Positions 7,957-31,440 of a stretch of 64,000 bases of DNA are shown here, piece after piece (the stretch's first letter is position 1; each line of letters starts with the position of its first letter). The notes under the pieces are model-generated. The model saw only the letters and a list, made by a program, of their open reading frames with translations, did no database searches and had not been told where the DNA came from. The stretch covers positions 32,001-96,000 of the IMG/VR virus record IMGVR_UViG_3300042351_000704, one strand, 5' to 3'. A program made the translations under genes and the position numbers. This stretch comes from a virus.

Positions 7957-8628
7957 ATGAAGACAACTATTGGAGATGTAATCTCAAGAATCCGTTCCCA
8001 AGTGAAGGCAGTAAGGCAAGATGCTTTACTGACTGACAGGGTCATATATTCTTTTGTCAACAAGCACGCCAAGTGGTTAATGAAAAGAGAAGACTCTCGT
8101 AATAAGCTGATGGCTTTCTCTGGCGTTATTCAAACACTAGATCTGGTTGAACTTATTGATGTAGACAAGGTGGAAGCCTGCTGCACCGGACTATCTTCTG
8201 ATTGCACTATCAAGCGTACAAAAAAGAAGATGCCCATATTCATGCAAGGATACTGGGGTCCGCTTATTCGTACTGTAGCAAGCCTGGACGGCTCAGAAGA
8301 GTTGCAGCCAACTACACCGAGTCAGTATATTTCGATGAGCAAGAGCAAGAACTTCCGTTTTAATAAGACTAAATATTTCTGGTACCTGGATGATTATATC
8401 TATTTCCCGAACCTGGAGTGGGATGCAGTGCGTATAGAAGGAATTTTTGAAGATGACATCTCCAGCTTTACCTGTGAAGAAGACAGTTGCATGACCCGCT
8501 CTAGCCAGAGTTTCAATGTACCTGATTACCTGCTTGGTGAAATAGAAGCCAAGACTTTCCAGGACCTGGCTGGCATGATGCAAATGCCGGTTGATTTAAC
8601 CAATGATAAACAAAGCGTAGCCCGTTAA
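7957..8628 (+). CDS. Putative tail ring/tubular protein
   Basis: 223 aa between the IHF-like gene and the tail stabilisation gene. Call rests on crAss-like synteny. Confidence 0.55.
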   Translation: MKTTIGDVISRIRSQVKAVRQDALLTDRVIYSFVNKHAKWLMKREDSRNKLMAFSGVIQTLDLVELIDVDKVEACCTGLSSDCTIKRTKKKMPIFMQGYWGPLIRTVASLDGSEELQPTTPSQYISMSKSKNFRFNKTKYFWYLDDYIYFPNLEWDAVRIEGIFEDDISSFTCEEDSCMTRSSQSFNVPDYLLGEIEAKTFQDLAGMMQMPVDLTNDKQSVAR

Positions 8629-8633
8629 TAGCC

Positions 8634-9530
8634 ATGAAGACAGAACCTAAATACCGTACGTTCGATGAGCTGCTCAATGAGGTGGCTACTGACTTTGTAC
8701 AATATAATAACGAAGGGATGATAGAACCTGGCCAGCTGATTAAGGTGGCTCAAAGGGTAAACTATGACCTGGGACTGCGCATACACGGTACTAAAGAAAA
8801 AGTGCTGGATATAGAAAAGAGTAAGACCAGATTACCGGATGATTTTTACGTGTTGAACTATGCTTTCCTCTGTGGTAAGTATACGGTGACACAACCTATT
8901 CTTCAAGGTCGTCACACTGAAAACGTGATACTTGATCCTGAACAGTGTAAAACAGTAAATCCTGAAACGCTGTGTAATAAATGTGGCGAGGTGGATACTA
9001 CTTGTTACTGTGAAAAGACTTACACCGTGGAATGCAAGACCGGAGAAAAGGTGTATGTACAGGTGGTGGAAAAGCGTGGCTTTGAAACAAAGACTTACGA
9101 GACATTTGACCGCATACATATCAGCACTTCTACTGGTAGAAAAGACGCTTTAGACAACAGAGGTAACAACGGCTATATTAAAAATGGTTTTATCTACACC
9201 AACCTGGAGCAGGGTAAACTATACATTTCTTATCAGGGAGCCCTGGAAGATGAAGAAGGTAACCTGCTGGTGCTGGATCACCCAATGATCAACGAGTATT
9301 ATGAATACGCCATTAAGCAACGCTTACTGGAAAACTTATTTATGAACGGGGAAGATGTAGCAGCAAAGATGCAGCTGGTAGAACAGCGTCTTCGTGCTGC
9401 ACGCAACAACGCCCTTACCATTGTAAACACTCCTGACTTTGCAGAGATGAAAGCTCTGTGGGAAATGAACCGCAAGGCACAGTATGGCAAGTACTACGAC
9501 ATGTTTAAATCAACCTCTTATGGTGTCTAA
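8634..9530 (+). CDS. Putative tail ring/tubular protein with Cys-rich insertion
   Basis: Synteny. YIKNGFIYTN...G.LYISY.G...DEEGNLLVLD segment is typical of crAss-like ring proteins. Confidence 0.55.
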   Translation: MKTEPKYRTFDELLNEVATDFVQYNNEGMIEPGQLIKVAQRVNYDLGLRIHGTKEKVLDIEKSKTRLPDDFYVLNYAFLCGKYTVTQPILQGRHTENVILDPEQCKTVNPETLCNKCGEVDTTCYCEKTYTVECKTGEKVYVQVVEKRGFETKTYETFDRIHISTSTGRKDALDNRGNNGYIKNGFIYTNLEQGKLYISYQGALEDEEGNLLVLDHPMINEYYEYAIKQRLLENLFMNGEDVAAKMQLVEQRLRAARNNALTIVNTPDFAEMKALWEMNRKAQYGKYYDMFKSTSYGV

Positions 9531-9894
9531 AACTCCCAAGGTGCAAACCACTGTTCAGCTGCCAATGTATAACTGCAAGGTGGTAATGACAGTAGTGGAA
9601 AATGTCAAGCTTGAAGTAGAAAAACTATACAAGAAACACAAGATAAAAGAAGAGTTTGATGATGAAGCGGAAGGAGCTGTAGTAATGCCTGGTATGGATA
9701 CGTACTATTTACTGCTGGGACAAGCTTACCTCACACATAACACCATTGCACACGAGATATTTCATGCCGCTGTTCGTGTAACAGAAGACAGGGGAATAGT
9801 AGATGAAGAAGCACAGGCCTGGTTAGGCGGACACCTTACCGGACACCTTTACAAATTTTTAGACAAGAAGAAGCTACCAATAAAACATGGCTGA
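9484..9894 (+). CDS. Small zincin-like (HExxH) protein; true start probably near 9520
   Basis: TIAHEIFHAA...DEEAQAW: HExxH plus a downstream Glu. Confidence 0.65.
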   Translation: MASTTTCLNQPLMVSKTPKVQTTVQLPMYNCKVVMTVVENVKLEVEKLYKKHKIKEEFDDEAEGAVVMPGMDTYYLLLGQAYLTHNTIAHEIFHAAVRVTEDRGIVDEEAQAWLGGHLTGHLYKFLDKKKLPIKHG

Positions 9895-12800
9895 ACAATC
9901 ACAGAATCCAGGGGCGGTAACTAATTCCTTTTCTAAAGGAATGGTCAAAGACTTTAATGACACCTTTGTCGGAGAGGGACTGTGGAGCCATGCTCGTAAC
10001 GCAGTGAATAATTCACATGACGGACAGGTAGGTGTAATTGGTAATGAGCCAGCCAACTTGCATTGCGTAACTCTTCCGTATGATCTTATAGGATGCATTC
10101 TGTTAACCGATGACCGCTGGGCCATCTTTACTACCAACGATATAGATTCTGAAATAGGCATCTTTGATGAATCAGCCTGCACGTATACTAAGGCAGTCAA
10201 TGACCGTTGCCTGAACTTTAAACGTTCTAACCTGATTACAGGTATCAGCCGCAGACGCTACGATTGTGAGCGTCCGGTGTATTGGGCAGATGGTCTGAAC
10301 CCGGACCGTTTCATTGACCTGGACAATATTCCATTTAAGTATACTGAAACTCTGGTAGATGGTTGCATACAACGCACCTTTACCAATCAGCTGGATTGTG
10401 AAAAGATCAGACTGGCTGCTTACATCAAGCATCCTTGCCTGGAACTCTCACAAGGAAAGGTGGCAGGTAGTCTGTTAAACGGATCTTACCAGGTAGCGAT
10501 TGCTTACACCATCAACGGATCCAGGGTGACTGATTACCTCGGCCTATCCGAAGTGCAGTCTTTGTTTACCCACGAGAACAACAACTCTTCTTTGGAATTG
10601 AAGGTGCTTTCTGTTGATACCACCTTTGATACGTTTGACCTGGCTCTGATATCAAGAGTTAATGAGCAAACCTTTGTACGTAAGATCGGAGAGTATTCTA
10701 CTTCTCAGGGTACTATCTACATTGACCGTATCGATTTTGAGACTCCTACTATTCCTATACAAAACATCCTGCTGCGTTCAGAGCCTATTGAAAAAAGTGA
10801 TGCCCTGTACAGCGTGAATGATTACGCGTTACGCGTGGGTGTATACAGCAAGTTTAAGTTTAACTACCAGCAGCAGGCTAATAAGATTAAGACCAGCTGG
10901 GTGGCAGTAGAATATCCTAATAACTATTACATCAAAGGAGGAAACAATACCAGTTACTTAAGAGATGAGCAGTATGCGTTCTTTATTCGTTTTATATACA
11001 ACACCGGTGAACGTTCAGAGTCTTACCATATACCAGGAAGAGCAGCTACATCTTTTGATACACAGAATATCACAGGTACAGATGTATACGAAAACCTTGA
11101 CGGCATTCAGCGTCAGCGCTGGCAGGTAGAAAACACTGCATCTGTAAACAGTATTAGCACAGCAGCACTACCAGACGGTGGAAAGGTGGTAGCCAGTGGA
11201 GAGATGGGTTATTGGGAAAGCACCGAGCTTTACCCGGCAGATAAACCCAACATTTGGGGAAACCTTTGTGGTAAACCAATTCGTCACCACAAGATGCCGG
11301 ATGTAACTATTACTGGTGGTGGTGTAGTGAATCACTTTACTACAGACGGTAAGATTGTGCTTTTAGGGGTGCAGTTTGATAACATTATAGCTCCTGTTGA
11401 CAACAACGGTCAGCCGATTGCTTCTATAGTAGGTTACGAGATCCTTCGTGGATCACGCCAGGGTAATAAGTCCATCATGGCAAAAGGTATGTTTAACAAC
11501 ATGCGTGAGTATACCATTCCTGGTAACACTACACTAAAAGGACTTTACCAGAACTACCCATACAATGATCTTCGTCCGGATCTTTATCTGTCTGACAGAA
11601 GAAGAATCAGCGGAGAAGGTGTAGTGAATGTAACAGAGAGTAACTCTCCTACATTAAAGACTTACAAAAAAGATGTCTTTTCTTTTCATAGCCCGGAAGT
11701 AACTTTTACCAATCCGTTCCTGAATGCTGATGAAGTAAAGATTTATGAAGAATTGCATGGTACTGCACGTGGTCAGTTTGAAGTTCCTTTCCGTCATCCG
11801 AAGTTTAAGGTGGCAACCAACTTTACAGCAGCTGTGGCCAGGATCTCCGGACTTATGGATGCAGTGGCTAAAGTGGGCAAGGGTATCAAGATTGCAGCCA
11901 CCGAGAATATTCCGATTGATATGCAGTTTGGTCCGATCGGTAAACCACCTGCATTTCCATCTGCATCAGGTGGAGAAATTACAGGTCCGTTGCAAACAGC
12001 AGCTGCCTGGGCTAAGTATGCCCTTGACCTGATTACCTGGGGTGTAGAGGTAGCAACCATAGTTTCTCTTATAGGAGCTCTTGCAGAAATACAGTCTGAG
12101 AAACTCTTTGAACTTTTCCGTATCCTGATTCCTAAGCGCCAGTATGCTGCACAGTATAACTCGCATGGTTTCTATGATAAGTTTATTATTTCTTTAGTCG
12201 GCAACAGAAGAAGAAAGATTCTTGACGCCAGCTATATGGCCGGATCTAACCTGCAGTATTTTAATGATAAGTATCAGGTGAACAACATTCACCGCAGCTC
12301 AGGACTGGTAATACAAACACATGCAGACATCAGTAATCCTACGGTAGTAGATAACAGCCGTACCACAATTTCTGATTCAGGTAAAGGACTTTACAATACA
12401 TTTAGTACTACCATTTCTTCACACTACGGAGCAGTAAAACTGTTAATGCCATCTCAATATGGTCAGCTTAATTCTATAAAGCAACTGAGCGTATCGGTTT
12501 GCATGCATCCGATGAAAGCAGATACTACAACCAAGCATTCTACAGGTGTGTTGTTTGGTGGAGATACTTACATCAACCGTTTTACAGAAAAGAATAGCAT
12601 GTTCTTTTTTAACAACTGGCTGATGGGTGAGCAGGATGATATCGAGTTTGATTACACCCAGTATATCAATGTGCCTTGGGCCCGTTACTGGTTACATAAT
12701 ACACAATACCACAGTACGTTCTTAAAAGCAGCTGATGATTTCAGAGCACTGGATGACAGGCAGTCTTCTGCATTTCACGTAAACCGTGGTTACTTCTATC

Positions 12801-14458
12801 TCTTTAATTCAGGCGTGCGTGACTTCTATGTAGAATCAGAAGTGAACGTAGCGTACAGAGACTGGGAAGATGACTTTAGCAGACGCCACTATGATCCGTT
12901 ACGTTATACAGATCTTAGCATGCTATTTCGCTCTGATATTATCAAGAGTGGAAACTACTATAAGTATGATTACTCTTTGAGTGTATCTAAGCTGTTCAAC
13001 TCCCAGATTACCTGGGGTGAATTACTACCAAGAGATTATGATCCCGAGGTGGCTGCTACCTGTTACACTTACAGACCTAACCGTGTATTGTATTCTTTAC
13101 AACAACAGGACAACTCTAAAGATGATAACTGGAGAGTATACCTGGCCAATAACTACCGTGACTTCCCTGCCAGGGTAACAGTAATCAAATCAGTGAATTC
13201 TACTGGTGCGTTATTTATGCTCAAAGACAGAAGCCCTCAGCTTTTTAGCGGAGAGGAGCAACTGAAGATGGACGGTACAGGCGCTGTGATCAGTATTGGT
13301 GATGGTAACTTATTTAACCAGCCTGGTCAGTTGAAGTCTATTGTCAATGCAGACCGCTCTTACGAGTATGGCTCTTGCCAGAGCAAGTATGCTCACCTGG
13401 GGAATGTATACGGTGTATTCTGGGTAAGCCAGGACCAGGGTAAAGTGTTCCAGTATGCCGGTGGTATCAATGAGATATCACGCGATGGTATGAAATACTG
13501 GTTTGCCAAATACCTACCAAGTGAATTACTAAAACTATACCCTGAATATCCACTGGCGGATAACCCGCTTGTTGGTGTAGGTGTACAAATGATCTATGAT
13601 AATACCAATGAGATTATCTACATCAGTAAGAAAGATTACAAGCCAAAGGTTAGTAACCTACTTTATGATGATAAAGGATTCTATTCTCTGGTAGGCACTG
13701 TAAAAACTTACCGTCCGTTTACCGATTCAACTGCATGGGAAGACGCCAGCTGGACTGTATCATATGATCCAAAATCAAAGACCTGGATCAGCTACCATGA
13801 CTGGAAACCTACGTTCCTGATACCTGGTAAGAATCATTTTATGAGTGTAAACCGTAACAGCATTTGGAAACACAACATGCGTTGCGATCTGTTCTGTAAC
13901 TACTACGGTGTTGACTATCCGTTTGAAGTGGAGTTTATTTCTTCTACCGGACAGCAAACGACTTCTCTTAGAAACATTGAGTTCCTGCTGGAAGCATACA
14001 AGTATCATAACAGCTGTGCAGATAAGTTCCATGTACTGGATGAAAACTTTGACCAGGCTATTGTCTATAACTCTGAGCAGATCTCCGGACTACTGGAGCT
14101 GAACTTAAAGAGCAAGACTAATCCGGTGTCGATGTTAAACTTCCCGCAAGTGGGACCACAGTCTATCAAGATCCTATACGCAAAAGAAGAACAGAAGTAC
14201 AGGTTTAACCAGTTCTGGGATATTACCAAGAACCGTGGAGAGTTCAGTGCAACAACCAATGTACCAATGTTTAATACCAGGGCTAACGGATATGAGTTCC
14301 CGATTAACCCTCAGTATGTAAACTATCAAAAGTCACCACTTGAGCATAAGAAGTTTCGTCATAACGTGAACCGTGTATTACTCCGTAAACTGAAGAGTGC
14401 AGACGTGAAGCTACTATTCAAACTATCTAACCAGAAAATATTACAATCACCGAGGTAA
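9887..14458 (+). CDS. Tail stabilisation / muzzle protein (crAss-like)
   Basis: 1523-aa beta-rich protein. N-terminal NSFSKGMVKD...ARNA, GGDTYI and WTVSY....W.SYHDW segments. Directly before the cargo genes. Confidence 0.75.
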   Translation: MAEQSQNPGAVTNSFSKGMVKDFNDTFVGEGLWSHARNAVNNSHDGQVGVIGNEPANLHCVTLPYDLIGCILLTDDRWAIFTTNDIDSEIGIFDESACTYTKAVNDRCLNFKRSNLITGISRRRYDCERPVYWADGLNPDRFIDLDNIPFKYTETLVDGCIQRTFTNQLDCEKIRLAAYIKHPCLELSQGKVAGSLLNGSYQVAIAYTINGSRVTDYLGLSEVQSLFTHENNNSSLELKVLSVDTTFDTFDLALISRVNEQTFVRKIGEYSTSQGTIYIDRIDFETPTIPIQNILLRSEPIEKSDALYSVNDYALRVGVYSKFKFNYQQQANKIKTSWVAVEYPNNYYIKGGNNTSYLRDEQYAFFIRFIYNTGERSESYHIPGRAATSFDTQNITGTDVYENLDGIQRQRWQVENTASVNSISTAALPDGGKVVASGEMGYWESTELYPADKPNIWGNLCGKPIRHHKMPDVTITGGGVVNHFTTDGKIVLLGVQFDNIIAPVDNNGQPIASIVGYEILRGSRQGNKSIMAKGMFNNMREYTIPGNTTLKGLYQNYPYNDLRPDLYLSDRRRISGEGVVNVTESNSPTLKTYKKDVFSFHSPEVTFTNPFLNADEVKIYEELHGTARGQFEVPFRHPKFKVATNFTAAVARISGLMDAVAKVGKGIKIAATENIPIDMQFGPIGKPPAFPSASGGEITGPLQTAAAWAKYALDLITWGVEVATIVSLIGALAEIQSEKLFELFRILIPKRQYAAQYNSHGFYDKFIISLVGNRRRKILDASYMAGSNLQYFNDKYQVNNIHRSSGLVIQTHADISNPTVVDNSRTTISDSGKGLYNTFSTTISSHYGAVKLLMPSQYGQLNSIKQLSVSVCMHPMKADTTTKHSTGVLFGGDTYINRFTEKNSMFFFNNWLMGEQDDIEFDYTQYINVPWARYWLHNTQYHSTFLKAADDFRALDDRQSSAFHVNRGYFYLFNSGVRDFYVESEVNVAYRDWEDDFSRRHYDPLRYTDLSMLFRSDIIKSGNYYKYDYSLSVSKLFNSQITWGELLPRDYDPEVAATCYTYRPNRVLYSLQQQDNSKDDNWRVYLANNYRDFPARVTVIKSVNSTGALFMLKDRSPQLFSGEEQLKMDGTGAVISIGDGNLFNQPGQLKSIVNADRSYEYGSCQSKYAHLGNVYGVFWVSQDQGKVFQYAGGINEISRDGMKYWFAKYLPSELLKLYPEYPLADNPLVGVGVQMIYDNTNEIIYISKKDYKPKVSNLLYDDKGFYSLVGTVKTYRPFTDSTAWEDASWTVSYDPKSKTWISYHDWKPTFLIPGKNHFMSVNRNSIWKHNMRCDLFCNYYGVDYPFEVEFISSTGQQTTSLRNIEFLLEAYKYHNSCADKFHVLDENFDQAIVYNSEQISGLLELNLKSKTNPVSMLNFPQVGPQSIKILYAKEEQKYRFNQFWDITKNRGEFSATTNVPMFNTRANGYEFPINPQYVNYQKSPLEHKKFRHNVNRVLLRKLKSADVKLLFKLSNQKILQSPR

Positions 14459-17400
14459 TGAGTCAGTTCCTAAAATATATTACTAAGAAGATGCGTGGTG
14501 GTGGAGACATTGGTTCTTTGCCAGGTGTTCTTTCTTTGTCTGCTATCCAGCAAAAGATCAAGCTTGAAAAGGACATTAAAAATCAGAAGGCTAGAAATGC
14601 TCAGGCTACTATTTCTCAGTACATTCCAAAGCCTGGAGATCAGCAGAGAATGAACAGAGCCAAAGATGCTTACCGTGCAGACCTTGCTAAGCCTTTAAAC
14701 AGGGCAGCAGAGTCTCAGCTGGCAGCCAATGCCTGGAGCAACATTGTAAAGCCTATGCTGGAAATGGAAGGGATTGCATCTGGTGTTAGTGGTGTACGCA
14801 GTATGCTGGCTAAACCAAAGAGAATACCTACCAGTTTTTATTCTGATCCGGTGATTACTAGAGGACCTATTCCTAACCCATGGGATGGTAAAGGAATACG
14901 CGTGGAGATGGAAGGATCTTTAGACGTACCAGAAGGTATGATGCCTTATATAGGTAGGGAAGAGTGGGTTCCGACTACACCTGCAGAAAAGGTGTGGGCA
15001 TCTTTTTTTAACGGAAAGGCAAGACCTATTCCTCCTCCATATAAAAAACAAAAAGGTGGAGCTTATGTAGACTCTGTCTTTAATGCTCCAAATAATAAAC
15101 AACTAGAATGGGTTCAAAGACTCTATCAAAAAAATGGTAAGAGTATTATGGTACCTGGACAAACTGAACCGTCTACACATTATATGGAAAGTGGTGATGG
15201 TCGTGTGTATCCAACTGTAGTAACAATGCCTGACGGTAGTTTAAAATATTTAGGTAAAGGTGCTTATGATTATGCAGACTCTACTAAAACTTACATAAAA
15301 TTTCCAACAGATAATCAAGCCAAGTGGTTTGGTAAGAACTATAAAAAAGGAACTGGTGTACTAGCTAAGAAAAAAGGCGGTCCTATAGTAGACCCTCGTG
15401 GTCAGTGGGCACATCCTGGAAAGGTTACACGTATACCAGGATCTGACATCACTATGCAAGGTGTACCTTATCCTGTATTAGGTGTAGGCTCTAATGGTCA
15501 ACAGCAAATGATGTATCCTGGTGAAAACTATGATTTTGGTGGTGCTGCGTATGTAGATGAGTACCCAATGATGCAGTTTGGTGGTGGAACATTACTTGGT
15601 CCTTCTGGAATGATAATGTCACTAGCTTCTAAAGTTGCTAACTATTTTTCTAAACCAAAAAGTTCGGGAACTAATAAACGCATGACGACATATGGTCAAA
15701 TGAATGATAGTTATGCTAATAGAAATAAAACTTTCTATGATAAGTGGCAAGCTAATGATGCAATAAAGTATGATAGTTCAGTGAACCCTATTAATTTAAC
15801 TTCTGGTCGTTTTAGAGGAGCTAAGGTAGCACCAGGAATGATTAATGATATAGTTAACGCAGCTAAAACTAATAATGTAGATCCATGGTTAATGTTATCT
15901 CTTGTAGGTAGAGAATCTACTTTTGGCGCAGACAAGGAGTATATTGACCACAGAGAAGGTAATAAACAAGACTTAATTTCAGGTTGGAATGTAGCAGAAG
16001 ATTATCAACCATATGAAGTAAATAGATACTTAGCTGATAAAAAAGTACCAGGTATTAAAGTAATTAAAAATAGTGATGGTTGGAGTTATGAAGTAGAAGA
16101 TGAACAAGCTATAGAAAGTTATCTAAAAAGTAATCCCAAACTTATAGATGATTATTATAAAAAATTAGCATCTACACCTGATCTTGGTAAACTAGATAGT
16201 TTTTCTCTTGCTGCTCAAAGGATTAAAAAGAAAGGGGTTAAGAATTACAATCCCGGTGATCCTAGATATTCTTCTATGGTAAATGAAGATATGAATCTTT
16301 TAAAGAATGATGCTGCATTAAAAGCATACATGAAAACTCTAGGATATAGACAAGGTGGAGAATTTGGTGGTGTTGTTAAGATGCAACGTGGTGGTAGATC
16401 TATGTTTGATCCTATATTTAAGGAGGATCCAAAGCTTAATAAAAACAGAGGTGATATAGCATCCTACTTTCCTCAGATACAAAGGATGAAGGATGAACCT
16501 AAGATAAAGGAGGCAATCGTTAAAGCTGATCAGAAAAGACAACAACAAATACTTGCAGAGGCAGTTGCTATAGGTAATAAAAACAGAACCACTGTTAAAC
16601 AAGATAATAGAACATCTAGAGAAAAAGAGATTGCTCAACAACAAGTTGTTAATGCATACTTGAATGAAGCTAAAGGTAAGTCTCCTTTTGCTCAAACATT
16701 AAGTTCTTTCACACCAACAGGATATAATCCAGAGGCTAGTAAGATAGCCGCTGAAAACATAGGACAAATGACTCCTATGATGGGAGCCACTAGATTATTT
16801 AACACTGTAAGAGATCCTGAAAATAACCCTTATGGTATTGGTCAAGGGAATGGATTTCTAGCAAATACATTAGGTACAATAGGATTACTTGGAGATGTTT
16901 TTGATGTAGGTGCTGTAGCTGCTCCTGGTGTAAAAGCTGCAGGTAATTATCTTACCCAACAAACACCTTTAAGAAATGCTCATAAGTTAAATCCTTATGC
17001 TTTAACTGATGATATGTTGTTTAACAAAGAAGGAGTTGTTAACAGACAAATGTTTGGAGATGATGCTTACAACAGTTTTTTAAAATTTGGTCCTACTACT
17101 AGACCAGGTGTTCCAGAAATGGATAAGTTTATGGAATTTATTAAAGCACCTAGATCACAAATAAGATCTGCAAATGATGAGGTGTTTGAGGTTGTAAACA
17201 CTATGGAAGATGGAGTATTTAAATATCCATATTTTCAAGAAGGTAGTCTTTGGTATACAGGACAGCAAAGAAATAATCTTGCTAAGGAATTAGGAAAAGA
17301 AAGAATTATAACAACTCCTAAGTCAGATATTTGGTTTGCACCAGCTGGAGAAGCTACATTAATGGGTGGTGATGATCTTGTTTCAAAAGGTTTAATAGAT

Positions 17401-19722
17401 AGGTACTCAAAAGGAAGAAGAGTGTTGATACCAGGAACTGAGTACGCCAAACCATCTAAGTATTCTGTATTTGAACCACATTGGTGGAAAGGTTATAAAC
17501 AACTACAAAAAGATGGTGGTCAGATTTTAAATGACTATGATATAATGCAATTAGGAGGTCAGTCTGCAAAGAAAAGTCCGTATTTTTTTATGAACTTAAA
17601 TGATGACTTTACTACAATGCTTAAAAATAGAGACTATGTAAAAAGTGAGTATAACAAGGGTATGGATTTTCATACTAAGTGGCTTAACTCGCCTATGTAC
17701 AAGAGTATGATTAATGCATCTGATCCTGTCAATGCAAAAAATATTACTGACCAACGTAAAGATCGTCTTTCTGCTGTGACTATGAAATACGTTGATGACC
17801 CATATAATAAAGCTGGAGCTTCTGCTGATCAATTAGGAAATATAGAAGTATACCCAGAAGGAATTGGTGCTAAAGGTATAGGTGTTCATGAGATCTCTCA
17901 TGTAACAGATACAGGTCCAGGTCAAAATCTTATACCTACTAAAGATAGGATTGATATATCAAGATATAGTCTTGCTTCAGAAAATATCCCAAAGTATAAT
18001 GCTTATAAAGAGTATTTTAATTATGTTACTCGACCTTCAGAAACAAGAGCTAGGTTAAATGAAATACGCCAAGGAGCTTCTGAAAATAAATTATATGATC
18101 CATTTACTGAGAAAGTAAGTCCAGCTATATATAATAAACTTAAAAACTTCAAGTTTAATAGTACACCTGGTAGTGATCCTCTTCAACAATTAAGGTCTGC
18201 TTACAGTGATGAACAGATTTTACAAATGCTTAATAGTGTTTCTAAATTAAGTACTAATAAAAATAATGATATGCAAAACATGATGAATGATGGTGGAGAA
18301 ATGATACGTAGAGCTGATGGCACATACTCTCGTAGAGGTCTATGGGACAACATACGTGCTAACAAAGGATCTGGCAAGAAGCCTACAAACGAAATGCTGG
18401 AACAAGAACGTAAGATCAAAGCTAAAGAAATGAAATACGGTGGTGGCACCAACAATCCTGGCTTTGAAGCTTTGCCTGATTATGTACAGGCTAAGATCCT
18501 TTCTAACATGGGATATGGTGGAATGACCTATCCGTTTATGCAAAAAGGTGGTGAACCTGATGGATCTATGGCTCTTGGTCAAATAGATGCTGCTATGGAT
18601 AAACTACAAAAGCTTCGTCAGTTTATACAACCGGATTCTGATCTCGAACCATGGATAAGTTCTAAACTTACTATGATGGATGACTATGCAGATGCTGTTT
18701 CTGACTACATGATGTATAATCCAGATGCTGAACTAGATGAACTAGACCAAATGAGAAATGGCGGATATGTTGTTACAAGAAGTGATGACCGTAAAGGAAA
18801 GACACATAAAGTGACCGGACCTGATGGTACTGTAAAATACTTTGGTGATTCTAAGCTGGGTCAGCACCCGGGTGATCCCGAAAGAAAAGAAGCATTCTAT
18901 GCACGCCATAAAAAGAATCTGGATGGTAATCCATACTTCAGAGCGTTTGCAAGAGAGACATGGGCAGATGGTGGTGCTCTAGAATATGGTATGGGTGGAA
19001 TGCCTTGCTATGAGTGTGGTGGCGCTATGTATAAAGAAGGTGGAATGTACGACTGTCCTGATCAGGAAAAAGATCCTGTAACAGGTAAATGTAAAGCTGA
19101 GGTTGTTCGTGGTAGAGAAGCAAATGCAGCTAACAAAGCAGCTAATGCAGACATGAACGCATGGGCTAAGCAAGTTGCTGCTATGGATAAAGAAGTTGCT
19201 AAACAGAATGCTGCTCAGTATGCAGGACAAAGAAGTTTTGATTATGACTGGATGCAATCTCCTGTAGATAAAGCAGAGAAGAAAGCAGCCATTGCTCAAT
19301 ACAAACAATTTATTCAGCAGAACCCTAACGTATTTGTAGCAGATGATTCATCCGGGGTTAGCCCAGAACAGAAGTATATCATTGCTTCTAAGCTTAAGCA
19401 AAAGTCAAGCACTCCAATGGGGTCCAAAGCATTTCAGCAAAAGTTTAACCAGGATGCACGCTTACTAGATCTTGGACGTATACAGTCTGACATTGTTCCT
19501 TTAATGGGTGGCTGGAGTGGAATTCAGAACTGGCTTTTTGGTAATAAAAAATTCGGTGGCTACATAGGACAAGACGGAAAACGTCACATGTCTAAAACAC
19601 CTACCTGGTCTGGTAATGCCGGTTATAAACAAGGCGGTCCGGTTATAGGAGAAGAGATGGAAGTAACTCCGGAGCAACTGGAACAACTTCGCGCACAAGG
19701 CTATGAATTTGAAATAATCTAA
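14458..19722 (+). CDS. Modular cargo polyprotein with xxxGG-delimited modules, including SLT-like and HExxH modules
   Basis: About 20 motifs such as MQFGG, MQRGG, MQLGG, MKYGG, MRNGG, YKQGG. DPWLMLSLVGRESTFG at about 15880-15927. HEISH at 17887-17901. Confidence 0.8.
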   Translation: MSQFLKYITKKMRGGGDIGSLPGVLSLSAIQQKIKLEKDIKNQKARNAQATISQYIPKPGDQQRMNRAKDAYRADLAKPLNRAAESQLAANAWSNIVKPMLEMEGIASGVSGVRSMLAKPKRIPTSFYSDPVITRGPIPNPWDGKGIRVEMEGSLDVPEGMMPYIGREEWVPTTPAEKVWASFFNGKARPIPPPYKKQKGGAYVDSVFNAPNNKQLEWVQRLYQKNGKSIMVPGQTEPSTHYMESGDGRVYPTVVTMPDGSLKYLGKGAYDYADSTKTYIKFPTDNQAKWFGKNYKKGTGVLAKKKGGPIVDPRGQWAHPGKVTRIPGSDITMQGVPYPVLGVGSNGQQQMMYPGENYDFGGAAYVDEYPMMQFGGGTLLGPSGMIMSLASKVANYFSKPKSSGTNKRMTTYGQMNDSYANRNKTFYDKWQANDAIKYDSSVNPINLTSGRFRGAKVAPGMINDIVNAAKTNNVDPWLMLSLVGRESTFGADKEYIDHREGNKQDLISGWNVAEDYQPYEVNRYLADKKVPGIKVIKNSDGWSYEVEDEQAIESYLKSNPKLIDDYYKKLASTPDLGKLDSFSLAAQRIKKKGVKNYNPGDPRYSSMVNEDMNLLKNDAALKAYMKTLGYRQGGEFGGVVKMQRGGRSMFDPIFKEDPKLNKNRGDIASYFPQIQRMKDEPKIKEAIVKADQKRQQQILAEAVAIGNKNRTTVKQDNRTSREKEIAQQQVVNAYLNEAKGKSPFAQTLSSFTPTGYNPEASKIAAENIGQMTPMMGATRLFNTVRDPENNPYGIGQGNGFLANTLGTIGLLGDVFDVGAVAAPGVKAAGNYLTQQTPLRNAHKLNPYALTDDMLFNKEGVVNRQMFGDDAYNSFLKFGPTTRPGVPEMDKFMEFIKAPRSQIRSANDEVFEVVNTMEDGVFKYPYFQEGSLWYTGQQRNNLAKELGKERIITTPKSDIWFAPAGEATLMGGDDLVSKGLIDRYSKGRRVLIPGTEYAKPSKYSVFEPHWWKGYKQLQKDGGQILNDYDIMQLGGQSAKKSPYFFMNLNDDFTTMLKNRDYVKSEYNKGMDFHTKWLNSPMYKSMINASDPVNAKNITDQRKDRLSAVTMKYVDDPYNKAGASADQLGNIEVYPEGIGAKGIGVHEISHVTDTGPGQNLIPTKDRIDISRYSLASENIPKYNAYKEYFNYVTRPSETRARLNEIRQGASENKLYDPFTEKVSPAIYNKLKNFKFNSTPGSDPLQQLRSAYSDEQILQMLNSVSKLSTNKNNDMQNMMNDGGEMIRRADGTYSRRGLWDNIRANKGSGKKPTNEMLEQERKIKAKEMKYGGGTNNPGFEALPDYVQAKILSNMGYGGMTYPFMQKGGEPDGSMALGQIDAAMDKLQKLRQFIQPDSDLEPWISSKLTMMDDYADAVSDYMMYNPDAELDELDQMRNGGYVVTRSDDRKGKTHKVTGPDGTVKYFGDSKLGQHPGDPERKEAFYARHKKNLDGNPYFRAFARETWADGGALEYGMGGMPCYECGGAMYKEGGMYDCPDQEKDPVTGKCKAEVVRGREANAANKAANADMNAWAKQVAAMDKEVAKQNAAQYAGQRSFDYDWMQSPVDKAEKKAAIAQYKQFIQQNPNVFVADDSSGVSPEQKYIIASKLKQKSSTPMGSKAFQQKFNQDARLLDLGRIQSDIVPLMGGWSGIQNWLFGNKKFGGYIGQDGKRHMSKTPTWSGNAGYKQGGPVIGEEMEVTPEQLEQLRAQGYEFEII

Positions 19723-19725
19723 ACT

Positions 19726-22700
19726 ATGAGAATACGTATAACAAAGAAAGGGTTAGCTAGTTACCAGGGTGCCATTGGTTCAAGCCAGGTTGGTGATCCA
19801 AATGATGCATGGATTCGTAAGATCCTTGAATATGAAGCACAGAAAGGATCTGCTACAGGTAGTGGTTTGTCTAACTTTGGGTATAATAATTGGCAAAAGC
19901 TAGGTCATAAAAACCCTCCTCGTTCATTAGATGAAGCTGTAGAATTTTATAAACAAGACTTTCTTCCTAAAGTACAGCAGTATCCCATGGGTCTTCGTGA
20001 GCGTATGGGAGACTATATATTTAATACAGGTAGAAATCCTAATGACTTGCTTCTTTATAACGCAGGTAAGATTACACTAGATCAGTTAAATAGTCCAAGT
20101 ACATTTACAAATGAGTGGAATCAGTTTGGTCCTGAGATTGAAAAACAGTATAGTAAGCCTAGCTTTATTAATAGCTTAGATGCTAATAAAGAAAATGTTT
20201 ATAAAACTACAGGAACTTATGATGCCCCTGATCCATTAGATCCTACAAAGAACGTTAAGACTCGCTATTCTTTAGATAATCCTAATCCTGCTTTTACAGC
20301 TACTTGGCAAGGACGTACAAATATGTGGGGAAATTATTTAAACCCTAAAGCTACTACATTACCTACACGTAAACCTGTTACTAATCCTACTGCACCACAA
20401 TCAATTAGTAGCAAAACATCATCTGCTGTTCTTCCACCTACTGCTACTGCTCAAACAATTGCAGGTGGGTTAAACAATGACCAGCTTATGTATGGAGCTA
20501 ATCCATTTGTTGTAACACAAGCTGATACTGATATGGCTGACCTTGCATCAAACAGTGCTGCGTCACCTATAACACCATCTCCTTCACTTCCTGCAATGAA
20601 TATGACAGGGATGAATTATGCATGGACTAACTTTGGTCAGGCTCCTACAGTACCTACACCACGTGTAACTACAGTGTCTCCAAGTGGTGCTAAGACAACT
20701 ACCGGTAATGTTGGTAAACCAACCGTTCAGTATCAAACAAACAATAACGGTACACCGGCTGCTCCTTTTAATGTGGTGCGACCGGGAAAAAAACCATCAA
20801 GATCTCCTTTTGACCTGGTAGACCTGGCTTTGCCTGTTGCCCGTTACTTTAATGCAGAGGCTCAGGTGAAAGACGCACGTATTAAAGAAATGGAATCCCG
20901 TTTCAATACGCTGCAAGGTGCTCCTAAGTTTCGTGGCAACTTTACAATCAACGAAGGTTTATTCAGACCTGATGACAGAGGTGTAAACGAAGGAATGTTT
21001 AGTAATGGATTTTACGCTCCTACCATGCAATATGGTGGAGATATGATAGAAGATACAACAATGAACTCTATGAAAATACGTATAACAGGTGCGCCACAGA
21101 TGGCGTATGGCGGACAATCAAACTATGGTCTTGACTTAGGTCAGCGTAATGTGTATGAGAATATGCAGGACAGTCTTTCAGAAAACAGTTCTGAATCTAT
21201 GTCTGAGCAATCTGAAGCATACGGACCTCATGTACTGGAAGCCGAAGGTGGTGAAACCATCCTGCGTCCGGACGGCACACATTTCAACATCTCAGGAGAC
21301 AGACATCACTCAGGTGGTGTAAAGCTAAACCAGGACCAGGCTCCTTCAGGTTCATTTATATTTTCTGATACCAATAAGATGAAAATAAAAGATCCGGCTA
21401 TACTGGCAAAGTTTGGCGTTGCCTATAAAAAAGGTGGCGTTACTCCGGCACAGATTGCCAAGAAGTTTAAGCTGAATGATTTTAAAGCACGCCTGGAAGA
21501 CCGCACCAGACAAACTGATTCTATCGGTATGAACTCTGATACCCAGATGATGAAAAAGAACATGCGTTCACTGGCTGAACTGGCTATGATACAAGAAGCG
21601 ATGAAAGGAGAACAAGCTCCTATGATCAGCCAGGCTATCCTGGGATCTTCTGAAATGGCATATGGCGGACATGTGATGCCTAAGTTCCAGGGAGCCAAAG
21701 GTTCTTCTACTGTAAAAGGTGGTCTGGGTGAATGGAGCGATGACTATGAAACATTAAAGACATTACTGCAGGATCCTAAGAACGCAGGCCTAAGAAAGTC
21801 TATGTTCCAGAACTACCTGAAAGACTATTCTAAGTCTCCATTAAAGAATGATCCAAAAGGAGAAGACAAGTTTATACAAAACTTCCTGGAAGCTCAGCGT
21901 CAGTTCATGGGTATCCGTGCTTCTTATGCTGATAAACCAGATCAGCTTACTTCAGAAGACTGGGATCGTACAGGTAAAAACAGACGTTACCAGGCAGAAG
22001 CTAAAAAGCTTGGATATACTCCTTTAGCAGAAACAGACATCAAACGTTTTCAGGGTGGTTACCGCGCACTTGCAAAAGCTTCCCGTAATCCTGAGTTCTT
22101 TGAGAACTTCTCTAAATACTTCAAGTTATCACCTATAGGTGTAAAAGATGAGGAGTATTTAGGTCAGCCTATTTCTAAAGATGATTCATGGGTAGGTAAC
22201 ACTACTCTGGGTCAGCTGGCTCAACTGCGTGATGTAAAACCTGGAGAGCAACCAAAGCCTCGTTACATCTGTGATGCTAATGGTAAAATTGTTACCGTAG
22301 CAACAGGTGGTTACGCCACTGCAGATGAAGCACGTAAATATTGTCCTGAAAAGAAAAAACCAGGTTCTAAATATGTATGTATAGACGGACAGGTAATCAC
22401 CACTGAATCAGGTGTAGGTTATGACACTCCGGAAGAAGCAGCACAAAACTGTGGTTCAGAGCAGGGTAAAGTACCTTTTGAATTCCTGGCTCCTGATAAG
22501 ATGAACATGGCCTGGAAGTTTAATCGTGCCGTTCCAAATATCTATTTACCAGAGATGTATCAGTTACCTAGACGTCAGTATCCTCTGGCGCTCGATGATT
22601 GGTTTGCCCGTGTACAAAACAGACAATCCACATACAACACTGCTATGGACACTGCAGCAAGAACTAACCAGTCTCAGGCTGTAGGATCTTTCCTTGCAGG

Positions 22701-23310
22701 ACTGGTAGGCGCACAGGATGCAACTGATATTGCACAAGTAAACTCTGCTAACCTGGATCGTGTAGACAGAAGACAATTAGTAGATATGGAAACAGATTTT
22801 AAAAATGATGTCTTCAACCTGGGTCAACGTCAGGAATACAGCAAAGGACTTGCAATTGCTCAACAGCAATTTGATAATGCACTTAACAAAGGTGTGGGAG
22901 ATGCAATACAATCATTTGCTGATGCGTATGAAAACCGTGGTGATCTTTATGACATCAACATGCGTGATCCGTATTTTTATCGTCATCCGGCTAACTACAA
23001 AACAATCTTCAAAGGTTCTACCGGAAACATTTTTAATGCTGGTACTATTGCTGGTATTGGTACTAATGGAGCTGGTGGGTTTTCAGGTGTTGGTGCTTCT
23101 GCTAATGCTGTTTACAAAGATATATATGATGGCTTGACAGATGTGAAAGATGAAAAAGAGAGATCAGCATTTGCAAAACAGTTAGCAGCTAATTATATGG
23201 CTGGGTCTCGTCAGACTAATACTCGGTCTTACGATGCGTTTGGATTCCCAAGATCATCAAGTCGTAGATCATCTAGCTTAAACTTTTTTAACCAGGATGA
23301 TGACCAGTAA
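19726..23310 (+). CDS. Cargo/ejection protein with N-terminal GH108-like muramidase domain and xxYGG motifs
   Basis: ILEYE...SNFG...LDEAVEFY...DYIFNTG follows the GH108 pattern. Also EAEGGE...G.RH..GGV, MQYGG and MAYGG (twice). Confidence 0.7.
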   Translation: MRIRITKKGLASYQGAIGSSQVGDPNDAWIRKILEYEAQKGSATGSGLSNFGYNNWQKLGHKNPPRSLDEAVEFYKQDFLPKVQQYPMGLRERMGDYIFNTGRNPNDLLLYNAGKITLDQLNSPSTFTNEWNQFGPEIEKQYSKPSFINSLDANKENVYKTTGTYDAPDPLDPTKNVKTRYSLDNPNPAFTATWQGRTNMWGNYLNPKATTLPTRKPVTNPTAPQSISSKTSSAVLPPTATAQTIAGGLNNDQLMYGANPFVVTQADTDMADLASNSAASPITPSPSLPAMNMTGMNYAWTNFGQAPTVPTPRVTTVSPSGAKTTTGNVGKPTVQYQTNNNGTPAAPFNVVRPGKKPSRSPFDLVDLALPVARYFNAEAQVKDARIKEMESRFNTLQGAPKFRGNFTINEGLFRPDDRGVNEGMFSNGFYAPTMQYGGDMIEDTTMNSMKIRITGAPQMAYGGQSNYGLDLGQRNVYENMQDSLSENSSESMSEQSEAYGPHVLEAEGGETILRPDGTHFNISGDRHHSGGVKLNQDQAPSGSFIFSDTNKMKIKDPAILAKFGVAYKKGGVTPAQIAKKFKLNDFKARLEDRTRQTDSIGMNSDTQMMKKNMRSLAELAMIQEAMKGEQAPMISQAILGSSEMAYGGHVMPKFQGAKGSSTVKGGLGEWSDDYETLKTLLQDPKNAGLRKSMFQNYLKDYSKSPLKNDPKGEDKFIQNFLEAQRQFMGIRASYADKPDQLTSEDWDRTGKNRRYQAEAKKLGYTPLAETDIKRFQGGYRALAKASRNPEFFENFSKYFKLSPIGVKDEEYLGQPISKDDSWVGNTTLGQLAQLRDVKPGEQPKPRYICDANGKIVTVATGGYATADEARKYCPEKKKPGSKYVCIDGQVITTESGVGYDTPEEAAQNCGSEQGKVPFEFLAPDKMNMAWKFNRAVPNIYLPEMYQLPRRQYPLALDDWFARVQNRQSTYNTAMDTAARTNQSQAVGSFLAGLVGAQDATDIAQVNSANLDRVDRRQLVDMETDFKNDVFNLGQRQEYSKGLAIAQQQFDNALNKGVGDAIQSFADAYENRGDLYDINMRDPYFYRHPANYKTIFKGSTGNIFNAGTIAGIGTNGAGGFSGVGASANAVYKDIYDGLTDVKDEKERSAFAKQLAANYMAGSRQTNTRSYDAFGFPRSSSRRSSSLNFFNQDDDQ

Positions 23311-23365
23311 ACCTGTTAAGTTTAGTTTTAAACTTACCAGATTTTAGTTTATATTATATATGTAG
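23308..23365 (+). promoter_or_regulatory. Extended promoter element similar to 7297-7355
   Basis: TAAAC-N5-AAGTTTA...AAAC..AGATTTTAGT.TATATTATATATGTAG, 6 nt before ATG 23372. Confidence 0.55.
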
Positions 23366-23371
23366 TATCCT

Positions 23372-24811: not shown

Positions 24812-24821
24812 TAAATACTAG

Positions 24822-26543: not shown

Positions 26544-26545
26544 TT

Positions 26546-31438: not shown

Positions 31439-31440
31439 AC

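Follow-up and report, generated by a model that had tools for sequence, protein, structure and literature searches.

The window is a stretch of 64,000 nt, positions 32,001-96,000 of IMGVR_UViG_3300042351_000704, a genome record of 109.5 kb that is about 85% complete. It contains a block of virion genes in which P0001, a protein of modules joined by short peptides ending in Gly-Gly (hereafter seams), starts on the last base of the stop codon of the muzzle gene. The features of the block and of P0001 are as follows (positions in the window).

7957..14458, + strand: ring protein 2, ring protein 1 and muzzle-like virion protein (Pfam, PHROGs)
9484..9894, + strand: small HExxH protein of 136 aa, encoded after ring protein 1 and before the muzzle gene
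14458..19722, + strand: modular cargo (ejection) protein P0001, 1754 aa (ORF list, translation, synteny)
14458..14502, + strand: N-terminal leader of P0001, 15 residues, basic helix ending in MRGG, the first seam
14503..15060, + strand: module of residues 16-201, helical in its N part, rare (5/239 relatives)
15061..15381, + strand: module of residues 202-308, GC 0.35
15382..15585, + strand: module of residues 309-376 (DPRGQWAHPG signature) with a 14-residue junction peptide ending in MQFGG
15586..16395, + strand: lysozyme-like or lytic-transglycosylase-like module, residues 377-646 (AF2, VIA)
16396..17520, + strand: module of residues 647-1021, long helices and a Gly/Ala-rich hydrophobic stretch at about 790-830 (16/239 relatives)
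17560..18297, + strand: HExxH module, residues 1035-1280, predicted zincin-like fold (AF2, VIA)
18298..18765, + strand: three small modules (residues 1281-1329, 1330-1365 and 1366-1436), each closed by a seam
18766..18975, + strand: Tlr6F-like module (Pfam DUF5754, PF19058), residues 1437-1506
18976..19092, + strand: tandem seams around the only four cysteines of P0001 (CxxC...C...C)
19093..19638, + strand: helical module ending at residue 1685, then two short peptides bounded by seams
19639..19719, + strand: conserved C-terminal peptide, 27 residues after the last seam, ending in EFEII
19726..23310, + strand: next cargo gene, P0002, 1194 aa, 4 seams (ORF translation)

The source phage is identified as crAss-like from its ring and muzzle genes. 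Pfam CrAss_Ring_2 (E = 4e-21) and CrAss_Ring_1 (E = 2e-12) were matched, and the muzzle-like protein (1523 aa) matched the virion structural protein family phrog_37948 (E = 6e-61). The order ring 2, ring 1, muzzle, P0001, P0002 and giant proteins was the same as in crAss001 (gp44-gp45-gp46-gp47), and P0001 occupied the slot of cargo protein C1, directly 3' of the muzzle gene in a ring-muzzle-cargo-polymerase block. In genome coordinates, the portal gene lies at 9385-12135 and that of the major capsid protein at 13601-15220, preceded by a gene for a 433-aa protein. P0001 of this uncultured phage is probably carried in the virion and injected. An earlier note on this DNA had read the gene as a cargo polyprotein that would yield small virion-borne effectors: a modular, cargo-type gene of a crAss-like phage was borne out, the protease site and the small free effectors were not.

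HExxH occurred four times in the cargo block (P0001, the 136-aa ORF, and giant proteins of 3112 and 1761 aa). The 136-aa protein matched phrog_1365 (E = 6e-10), had the same position in 3 close loci and was missing from more distant loci; it is regarded as a candidate zincin and, only loosely, as a possible protease. P0002 reads as two fused units with an internal MKIRIT...GG header retained at residues 446-463. Its second unit was an ORF of its own in the related locus L006, with residue 1 aligned to P0002 residue 446, and the header was kept both in the fused P0002 and in its counterpart in L002. The idea that two neighboring cargo genes each carry half of a DUF5872 domain, to be reassembled, was considered and rejected, as the halves were never adjacent and Pfam covers just one.

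All 19 xxxGG pentapeptides listed in the earlier note were found in the P0001 translation, at residues 12, 197, 304, 372, 630, 642, 1017, 1030, 1276, 1325, 1351, 1361, 1432, 1502, 1510, 1518, 1525, 1697 and 1723, and those listed for the next gene (MQYGG, and MAYGG twice) at residues 434, 459 and 644 of 19726-23310. The proposed rule (M/Y/K)xxGG held for most of them and failed for QKDGG and WADGG, which are without M, Y or K at -3. The list missed YDFGG (residue 358) and EFGG (residue 634). YECGG, given as a separator, is probably not one and forms the knuckle of the only Cys cluster of P0001 (residues 1517-1545). Two LMGG (residues 967 and 1681) lay inside modules and were not seams.

Gly-Gly by itself was only mildly enriched in P0001 (23 runs vs. 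about 16 expected from 9.5% Gly). Met or Tyr stood at -3 in 14/23 GG runs of P0001, against 10/172 in the genome's 99 other ORFs (Fisher p = 1.2e-9; binomial p = 1.3e-9), and in 4/11 runs of P0002 (p = 0.005). Two upstream Gly-rich, fibre-like proteins with 31 and 24 GG had 0 and 2 such motifs, respectively. In a logo of 1982 GG sites from 120 proteins, Met was enriched 6.7-fold and Tyr 3.3-fold at -3, and Gln 3.6-fold at -2; the six commonest residues at -3 included neither Leu, Ile nor Val. Glu, Tyr and Gln were favored after GG, Lys and Arg made up less than 2%, and Pro followed 4.7% of the seams, two of these in P0001. In the resulting consensus, Met/Tyr/Phe is followed by Gln/Ala/Lys/Glu, one residue of any kind and Gly-Gly, and an aromatic-Pro/Asp-Glu-Met stretch often comes before it. 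The same hydrophobic-x-x-G-G peptide recurred in 239 relatives, and it also closed the N-terminal leader and preceded the C-terminal tail. Tandem seams 6-14 residues apart were frequent, 897 of 2212 inter-seam segments were shorter than 30 residues, and the extended upstream pattern was kept in the short inter-seam peptides. The idea that Met at -3 marks an internal start codon was rejected because Tyr, Lys and Phe take the same position.

The modules named in the earlier note were all present: the SLT-like module with GRES, the HExxH module with its motif at residue 1144, and three short signature modules at residues 312, 1291 and 1460. The leader was modeled by AF2 as a helix at residues 2-13 followed by GG, and similar GG-ending leaders occurred in crAss001 gp45 and in relatives. 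The DPRGQWAHPG module was the most widespread (191/239 relatives); an Atlas search with residues 305-380 returned no named cluster (best score 0.80). In locus L002, the module corresponding to residues 202-308 follows that of 309-376 instead of preceding it. Module 377-646, at whose end three seams fall within 17 residues, was modeled at a pLDDT of 80-97 over residues 410-633 with a lysozyme-like fold: the 14 best VIA matches (model residues about 445-635) were all peptidoglycan or chitin glycosidases of the lysozyme fold, at moderate scores (Z = 5.0-6.8; 94-145 residues aligned), among them MltF (6.8), FlgJ (6.3), Slt70 (6.1) and EtgA (5.9). A Glu-Ser pair is present in GRES (residues 484-487), its Glu a candidate catalytic residue. 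No Pfam match to this module, SLT included, was found even at E ≤ 1.

The HExxH module was modeled at a pLDDT of 80-94 and was present in 27/239 relatives. Its best VIA matches were five M13 zinc peptidases (Z = 5.4-5.8; 174-185 residues aligned; rmsd 4.4-7.5), so that the modeled fold appears zincin-like and metallopeptidase activity is putative. Module 1437-1506 scored below the cut-off of 27.4 bits against PF19058 (12.3 bits; E = 0.18), and the aligned modules of homologues P0007 and P0067 scored above it (27.9 and 35.8 bits, respectively); DUF5754 is Tlr6F (PMC12220804). The Cys4 cluster is a probable zinc knuckle; AF2 confidence was low there, and two homologues were labeled ribosomal protein S27E by JGI. 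The C-terminal peptide had near-invariant columns L723, G727, Y728 and I732 in a 26-sequence alignment and a weak match to DUF7210 (E = 0.0018), and similar tails end many relatives and neighboring cargo genes.

Whole P0001 had no match in Pfam or PHROGs, ten of its modules searched singly against Pfam gave sub-threshold rows only, and P0001 had no tblastn or megablast match among 50,697 phage records. The lysozyme-like and HExxH modules had no phmmer match to PDB sequences, and Foldseek of both AF2 models against the PDB returned no row at E ≤ 0.001, with nothing below E = 0.3 for the HExxH module.

Mosaic homologues were numerous (505 + 357), and modules were gained, lost and permuted among the 239 relatives in the presence/absence matrix and in module order. 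Breakpoints of module gain and loss coincided with the motif, so that the modular reading survived a refuting condition set in the earlier note: BLAST blocks ended exactly on the second Gly in 106/357 cases, and 67-72% of block ends fell within 10 residues of a GG, vs. 22% of positions. P0001 was represented by two ORFs, split at a seam, in L002, L004 and L006, and GC content stepped at seams (0.32-0.35 vs. 0.42-0.46). The only invariant or near-invariant columns of the 26-sequence alignment were the seam glycines, one seam Met, the C-terminal peptide, and P1309, P1340 and Q1344, which are conserved residues inside modules. Seams corresponded to low-confidence AlphaFold linkers between folded modules; in the C-terminal half, 11 of 12 seam GGs were in stretches with pLDDT < 50 (38% of residues), the twelfth was at the edge of such a stretch, and one non-seam GG sat in a folded domain. 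P0001 is thus a string of interchangeable modules, and the seam peptide that links them is under selection. Among relatives, the units that it delimits have been swapped, duplicated, reordered, fused and split, and it is more strongly constrained than the modules. Self-contained modules with the motif at their boundaries, as read in the earlier note, were supported.

A passive joint, in which the seam would be a helix stop and flexible hinge that keeps modules apart so that they refold independently once extruded, and would recur through common descent of linkers and in-frame recombination with no partner to recognize it, accounts for the location of all seams in low-confidence linkers at which modules are swapped. 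Hydrophobic-x-x-Gly is a common helix C-cap pattern, and about 7-8 seams lie directly at the end of a predicted helix. Variation is tolerated in a plain hinge, yet the GG columns were the most conserved of the family; position -3 favored Met and Tyr and not Leu, Ile or Val, unlike capping motifs; Lys and Arg were avoided after GG; and the extended upstream pattern was conserved in short inter-seam peptides. Seam DNA was not conserved beyond Gly codon bias and was no recombination hot spot as such. The passive joint is quite unlikely on this evidence. A pure helix-cap origin was rejected from the residues at -3, and the seam as a DNA recombination hot spot was rejected because codons varied and only a GGT bias was common.

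Structures exist for the crAss001 counterpart, gp45 (PDB 7QOG, 7QOI, 7QOJ, 7QOL and 8CKB; Bayfield et al. 2023, PMC10172136), which has the same slot as P0001 directly 3' of the muzzle gene. It is also rich in Gly-Gly (20 GG in 842 aa), with a basic N-terminal leader ending in GG and five A-(F/Y/E)-G-G seams (G210, G264, G333, G428 and G563) that bracket two cryo-EM pieces. Blocks of tblastn matches to its relatives in gut crAss phages started or stopped at seams (264-329/343, 425/427 onward, 368-372 onward), and seams were also present in the counterparts in DAC15, crAss002 and p-crAssphage. No homology between gp45 and P0001 was detectable (BLAST E > 3; hhalign probability 0.5% with the N-terminal half of P0001), and the sole, weak hhalign match (E = 0.13) fell on the Gly-rich stretch of module 647-1021. 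Searched at E ≤ 10, no protein of the entire genome matched Pfam crAss_CARG1 (PF25725, portal-binding). P0001 was twice as long as gp45 and had enzyme modules that gp45 lacks, and the aromatic residue was at -1 or -2 in gp45 seams and at -3 in P0001.

Twelve portal-bound gp45 segments sit on the dodecameric crAss001 portal, and gp45 was modeled as one chain from capsid to tail (PMC10172136). The solved portal-bound piece (residues 425-552) starts at the A of an AFGG seam and continues through GG428 into W429. This continuity across a seam argues for an uncut peptide. The structure would also fit cutting just upstream of the seam, since zincin cleavage ahead of a hydrophobic residue would give an AFGG N-terminus, exactly where the crAss001 model starts.

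Peptide masses of the published crAss001 gel (MALDI fingerprints of bands 1-10; Shkoporov et al. 2018) were re-analyzed. Protein gp45 (90.7 kDa) did not exceed the decoys in any re-analyzed band of 70 kDa or more, where the 93-kDa portal was found. A few gp45 mass matches in bands 5-6 fell among what we take to be common keratin masses. The missing full-length gp45 is in the direction expected from cleavage, at the low weight of MALDI fingerprints of bands 1-10 with keratin peaks in band 5.

Cutting of the seams by a phage protease, most plausibly a zincin of the cargo block, in the capsid or after ejection, would make P0001 a true polyprotein from which the leader, the tail and the inter-module peptides are removed and the modules freed as small virion-borne proteins. 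Seams have features of protease sites, being disordered and strictly conserved with preferences on both sides of GG; GG-ending leaders and post-GG tails look like propeptides; and fused and split gene versions were interchangeable at seams. The four HExxH motifs of the cargo block, one of them in the module modeled as zincin-like, favor cutting and stand against an uncut peptide. Precedents exist in the G-G-X cleavage of adenovirus and African swine fever virus precursors and in the trimming of ejected proteins by T4 and phiKZ-type prohead proteases, and cutting would spare twelve gp45 chains from passing the crAss001 portal together. Processing by zincins has been predicted for polyvalent proteins and for crAss polymerase-block proteins (Iyer et al. 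2017, PMC5512222; Drobysheva et al. 2020). Besides the continuous crAss001 model across GG428-W429, cutting is opposed by the tandem seams, which would give many 6-14-residue peptides, by Pro after some seams, and by the listed site inside the Cys4 knuckle. Peptidase_C48, C39, M23, Prok-JAB, S78 and MPTase-PolyVal had no match at E ≤ 1 in the approximately 85%-complete genome, in which, among recognized families, neither a Gly-Gly-specific nor a prohead protease was found. Neither the 136-aa zincin nor the HExxH module was retained as a universal protease, as the former was restricted to close relatives and the latter to 27/239. On balance, cutting of the seams is a possibility at less than even odds; the broader proposition, that a virion-packed phage protease cuts the seams and that crAss-like cargo genes are true polyproteins, each supplying the host with a variable set of a dozen or more free mini-proteins, is doubtful.

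Polyvalent proteins, known from phages and conjugative elements (Iyer, Burroughs, Anand, de Souza and Aravind 2017, PMC5512222), likewise have many unrelated domains in one polypeptide in a virion-gene context, with presumed delivery with DNA, extreme mosaicism and a zincin domain predicted to process the chain. P0001 had several disparate domains (lysozyme-like, zincin-like, Tlr6F-like and others) beside virion genes, and its homologues carried ART-PolyVal (P0011; E = 2e-13), ADP-ribosyltransferase, YkuD, amidase and glucosaminidase domains. None of the polyvalent signature domains (MPTase-PolyVal, ART-PolyVal and others) was found in P0001 or the genome, and P0001 differed from polyvalent proteins in the lack of any Pfam match and in that many of its modules were of only 25-70 residues. 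No junction motif is named for polyvalent proteins, and "glycine" and "linker" are absent from the text that describes them (PMC5512222).

Double-glycine leaders of the C39 type need hydrophobic residues at -4, -7 and -12; the P0001 hydrophobic residue was at -5 from a cut after GG, and the genome had no Peptidase_C39 match. Clan CE proteases process virion precursors at Gly-Gly-X, as the adenovirus protease does and as African swine fever virus pS273R does on pp220 and pp62. Substrates of this type resemble P0001 in a hydrophobic residue a few positions before G-G and in several sites per precursor, and their products are packed in the particle, as P0001 probably is. P0001 seams departed from the clan CE consensus (M/I/L)-x-G-G-x: the hydrophobic residue was one position further (P5, vs. 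P4 in adenovirus) and was M/Y/F rather than L/I. The Ulp1-like Peptidase_C48 was among the families with no match, and the P0001 phage is tailed and of the HK97 lineage, unlike either of these viruses.

Encapsulin cargo-loading peptides and the T4 capsid-targeting sequence are short terminal peptides on flexible Gly-rich linkers that load cargo into an HK97-fold shell. The preferred reading of the seam, an uncut docking handle, is modeled on these tags, which differ in being present once or a few times per cargo and in other sequences; in P0001 there are about 20 copies, which are found between modules as well. Tandem seams 6-14 residues apart and short inter-seam segments suit a multivalent tag better than cutting sites, and Pro after some seams, two of them in P0001, points the same way as the gp45 piece. 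The earlier note had offered a cleavage or a packaging signal, and packaging fits at least as well as a protease site. The uncut docking handle is given a probability of about 0.4 and is rated only slightly above cleavage.

The architecture of P0001, which is strongly supported, is that of beads on a string, with about 16 autonomous modules (a putative peptidoglycan-cleaving lysozyme-like module, a zincin-like module, a Tlr6F-like mini-domain and several modules of 25-70 residues) separated by disordered linkers that each bear a selected peptide. Under the docking-handle reading, this peptide would serve for recognition; the cargo chain would stay uncut in the particle, at least at most seams, and the repeated seam would be both multivalent handle and hinge. 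Through the handle, the cargo would attach to some virion component as the particle assembles, as encapsulin cargo-loading peptides do on the HK97-fold shell, and the hinge would let the chain thread out module by module.

Searches of the literature on crAss cargo proteolysis, Crassvirales polyproteins and crAss polyvalent proteins found no description of the motif; the seam pattern is real, widespread and apparently undescribed. It offers a rule by which unannotated cargo proteins, in their thousands, can be divided into functional modules, a prediction of the cutting or docking points in C1-type proteins, and exact residues to mutate in the cultured phages crAss001, DAC15 and crAss002. The storage and ejection of megadaltons of protein is a question raised by the crAss001 structure, on which the seam peptide gives a handle. 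If seams are cut, the crAss001 model of twelve chains through the portal would have to be revised, cargo genes of phages would act as cassettes of mini-proteins that are injected free, and a new protease specificity would await finding, a parallel to the Gly-Gly cuts of adenovirus and African swine fever virus that would have arisen in tailed phages with a different enzyme. If seams are uncut, they would represent a novel type of multivalent tag for loading an HK97-type capsid.

The gene of the 1754-aa cargo protein P0001 lay directly behind the ring and muzzle-like genes in window coordinates:

7957-8628, + strand: ring protein 2 (Pfam CrAss_Ring_2, E 4e-21)
8634-9530, + strand: ring protein 1 (Pfam CrAss_Ring_1, E 2e-12)
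9484-9894, + strand: 136-aa HExxH ORF (AHEIFHA) between ring protein 1 and the muzzle gene; phrog_1365, function unknown
9887-14458, + strand: muzzle-like virion structural protein, 1523 aa (phrog_37948, E 6e-61)
14458-19722, + strand: P0001, 1754 aa, its start overlapping the last base of the 1523-aa gene
31441-40779: 3112-aa giant of the polymerase block, HExxH at residue 689
40796-46081: 1761-aa giant of the polymerase block, HExxH at residue 119

Terminase, portal and major capsid protein were located farther upstream in the source record, an IMG/VR virus of 109,551 bp and about 85% completeness (tblastn with crAss001 proteins). Downstream of P0001 came the next cargo gene P0002 (1194 aa) and then two ORFs of intermediate size, followed by three giants (1630, 3112 and 1761 aa). 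This is the gene order of crAss001 (muzzle gp44, cargo C1 gp45, cargo C2 gp46, polymerase block; PMC10172136), and P0001 therefore occupies the C1 slot of a crAss-like phage. Whole P0001 matched no family in Pfam or PHROGs, and no relatives were found by tblastn and megablast among 50,697 deposited phage genomes. Two Gly-rich proteins, probably fibres, were encoded upstream (whole-genome positions 22316-27895, 1859 aa, and 27902-32179, 1425 aa; the latter ends at window position 179).

All pentapeptides in the earlier note's list of Gly-Gly separators were present in the translations of P0001 and P0002. Its (M/Y/K)xxGG formula held for most items, two having none of these residues at position -3 (counted upstream of GG), and YECGG, the knuckle of the only four cysteines in P0001, is probably not a separator. 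The two LMGG of P0001 sat within modules. Runs of GG were only mildly enriched in P0001 (23 vs. about 16 expected); their context was highly non-random, with Met or Tyr at -3 in 14 of 23 runs (Fisher p = 1.2e-9 against the genome's 99 other ORFs, where 10 of 172 runs had them) and in 4 of 11 runs of P0002 (p = 0.005). As an internal control, the two fibre-like proteins had 31 and 24 GG runs, only 0 and 2 of them in this context, which excludes the motif as a by-product of glycine richness.

The four cysteines (window 19006-19092, residues 1517-1545; CxxC...C...C with two of the Gly-Gly peptides between) probably form a zinc knuckle, in a stretch of low AlphaFold2 confidence. Short peptides ending in CYECGG recurred in about 40 relatives, and two homologues carried the JGI label ribosomal protein S27E.

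Relatives of P0001 in a large protein database (505 of similar length and 357 shorter) were all mosaic, the best local alignment spanning 4-52% of the query. Internal BLAST block ends between P0001 and 119 relatives fell exactly at the second Gly in 106 of 357 cases, and 67-72% of all block ends were within 10 residues of a GG, vs. 22% of positions. Module breakpoints in homologues thus coincided with the motif, a point that the earlier note had left to be checked. Modules combined freely in a presence/absence matrix of 239 relatives: module 309-376 occurred in 191 of them, the lysozyme-like module in 60 and the HExxH module in 27, and modules 647-1021 and 16-201 were present in 16 and 5. Short relatives of full length (385-600 aa, on contigs >100 kb) consisted entirely of 25-70-residue modules strung together, with such a peptide, or seam, at the end of each. 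In three viral contigs that share the ring-muzzle context (L002, L004 and L006), two adjacent ORFs stood in place of P0001, and L002 had two modules in reversed order. GC content stepped at seams, from 0.32-0.35 in module 202-308 (window 15061-15381) and the lysozyme-like, middle and HExxH modules (15586-18297) to 0.42-0.46 in the remaining modules and the genome, as expected of cassettes of different origin.

P0002 (window 19726-23310) appears to be two cargo units joined in one gene, with the junction at residues 430-470. Its second unit was a separate ORF in L006, whose residue 1 aligned with P0002 residue 446. P0002 and the L002 counterpart, 45% identical to it, both retained the upstream GG-plus-short-tail and the downstream MKIRIT...GG header at the junction, so these peptides are maintained even when internal. 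The same header form opened P0002 itself and the C2-slot genes of related loci. The upstream cargo ORFs of L002 (7604-11512), L004 (8375-10774) and L006 (623-4975) ended in a DUF5872-type module (GG, LDRWF..., ending NHKRNK), the commonest C-terminus among homologues and absent from the fused gene of the window.

Across 1982 GG sites in 120 relatives, M (6.7x), Y (3.3x), K and F were favoured at -3, and Q (3.6x), A, K and E at -2. After GG, E, Y and Q were favoured, and K and R made up <2% despite abundant Lys. Short inter-seam peptides extended the motif upstream with an aromatic residue, Pro/Asp/Asn, Glu and Met-Met. Of the 3920 columns in a 26-sequence alignment, none was invariant or near-invariant except those of the seam glycines 1279-80, 1354-55, 1505-06 and 1726-27, one seam's Met, three residues within modules (P1309, P1340 and Q1344), G1731 and C-terminal peptide residues. 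The encoding DNA was not conserved past the GGT bias of the gene, so selection acts at the peptide level. That the seam is a passive joint is improbable, since a hinge alone leaves this conservation unexplained. No published description of the motif was found in the literature searched on crAss-like cargo and polyvalent proteins.

Cultured crAss-like phages had similar seams. crAss001 gp45 had 20 GG in 842 residues, among them five A-(F/Y/E)-G-G seams (209, 263, 332, 427 and 562); its leader was basic and closed with GG at residue 21. The seams bracketed both segments seen by cryo-EM, 214-245 within the tail barrel and 425-552 at the portal (PMC10172136), and when gp45 was compared by tblastn with other gut crAss phages, the aligned blocks started or stopped at them. 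Similar seams were present in the C1-slot proteins of DAC15, crAss002 and p-crAssphage; that of DAC15 (gene 59, L014 1925-4423) had a tandem-duplicated module of about 55 residues with x-x-x-G-G on both sides and a YCGG...C pair. Homology between P0001 and gp45 was not detectable by BLAST, hhalign or Pfam crAss_CARG1 across the genome.

The uncut reading, in which the seam would be a multivalent handle and hinge in the cargo chain, is given a probability of about 0.4. Cutting after GG is opposed by the gp45 model 425-552, whose first residue is the A of AFGG and whose chain runs on past GG to W429 (numbering checked against the PDB sequence), by seams often in tandem 6-14 residues apart, by Pro after 4.7% of seams, and by the lack of matches to Peptidase_C48, C39, M23, Prok-JAB, S78 and MPTase-PolyVal in the about 85%-complete genome. 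Cleavage at or beside seams is nevertheless a distinct possibility: formally, the seam shows all the properties of a protease site, leaders and tails resemble propeptides, fused genes and split genes can stand in for each other, and a zincin cutting before the hydrophobic residue would yield the exact N-terminus where the gp45 model starts. Zincin-mediated processing of such proteins has been predicted (Iyer et al. 2017, PMC5512222; Drobysheva et al. 2020), and HExxH motifs were present in P0001, the 136-aa ORF and the 3112- and 1761-aa giants, with a similar one at residue 2157 of crAss001 gp47. The two giants matched no zincin family in Pfam. A 119-aa counterpart of the 136-aa ORF had the same place in L002, L004 and L011 and was missing from more distant relatives.

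MALDI peak lists of crAss001 gel bands 1-10 (Source Data of Shkoporov et al. 2018) were fingerprinted against crAss001 proteins and shuffled decoys. Recovered were gp44 with gp34 and gp40 (bands 1-2), gp47 and gp50 (band 3), gp49 and gp44 (band 4), portal gp20 (band 5), and gp22, gp26, gp25 and gp23 (bands 6-9). gp45 (90.7 kDa), of which twelve segments are bound to the dodecameric portal (PMC10172136), never rose above decoy level, and gp46 was not clearly found either; with insensitive fingerprints of bands 1-10 only, the failure to find gp45 is no more than a hint of cutting. The mixture in the two top bands (>270 kDa) fits the disulfide-linked tail assemblies listed in an extended-data table of the structure paper (PMC10172136).

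AlphaFold2 models were made of residues 1-1034 and 1022-1754 of P0001. In the second, the HExxH domain was confident (pLDDT 80-94) and small modules moderately so; of 12 seam GGs, 11 lay in stretches of pLDDT <50, which made up 38% of residues, and the remaining one bordered such a stretch; the non-seam GG at 1684 was inside a folded domain. The first had a single confident domain (410-633). Against 48,161 PDB chains (VIA-align), the top rows were five M13 zinc peptidases for the HExxH domain (Z 5.4-5.8, 174-185 residues) and fourteen lysozyme-fold peptidoglycan/chitin hydrolases for residues 445-635 (MltF Z 6.8, FlgJ 6.3, Slt70 6.1, EtgA 5.9). Foldseek found nothing significant in the PDB with either model; given this and the moderate Z, the predicted domains are called lysozyme-like and zincin-like folds and not family members. 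A Gly/Ala-rich hydrophobic stretch (window 16830-16950, residues about 790-830), weakly like the Gly-rich N-terminal region of gp45 (hhalign E 0.13), may be a membrane-inserting segment; no evidence was found for an ADP-ribosyltransferase-like reading of the domain after it.

By sequence, the KYFGD...FYARH module is Tlr6F-like: homologous modules in proteins P0007 and P0067 passed Pfam DUF5754, or Tlr6F, which is conserved in polinton-like viruses, giant viruses and phages (PMC12220804). Other relatives carried ADP-ribosyltransferase, YkuD, amidase and glucosaminidase domains, and this repertoire, with the lysozyme-like, zincin-like and Tlr6F-like modules, would place the family among the polyvalent proteins (Iyer et al. 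2017, PMC5512222). The architecture is settled: P0001 is a modular cargo protein, and a selected seam peptide marks off its units.
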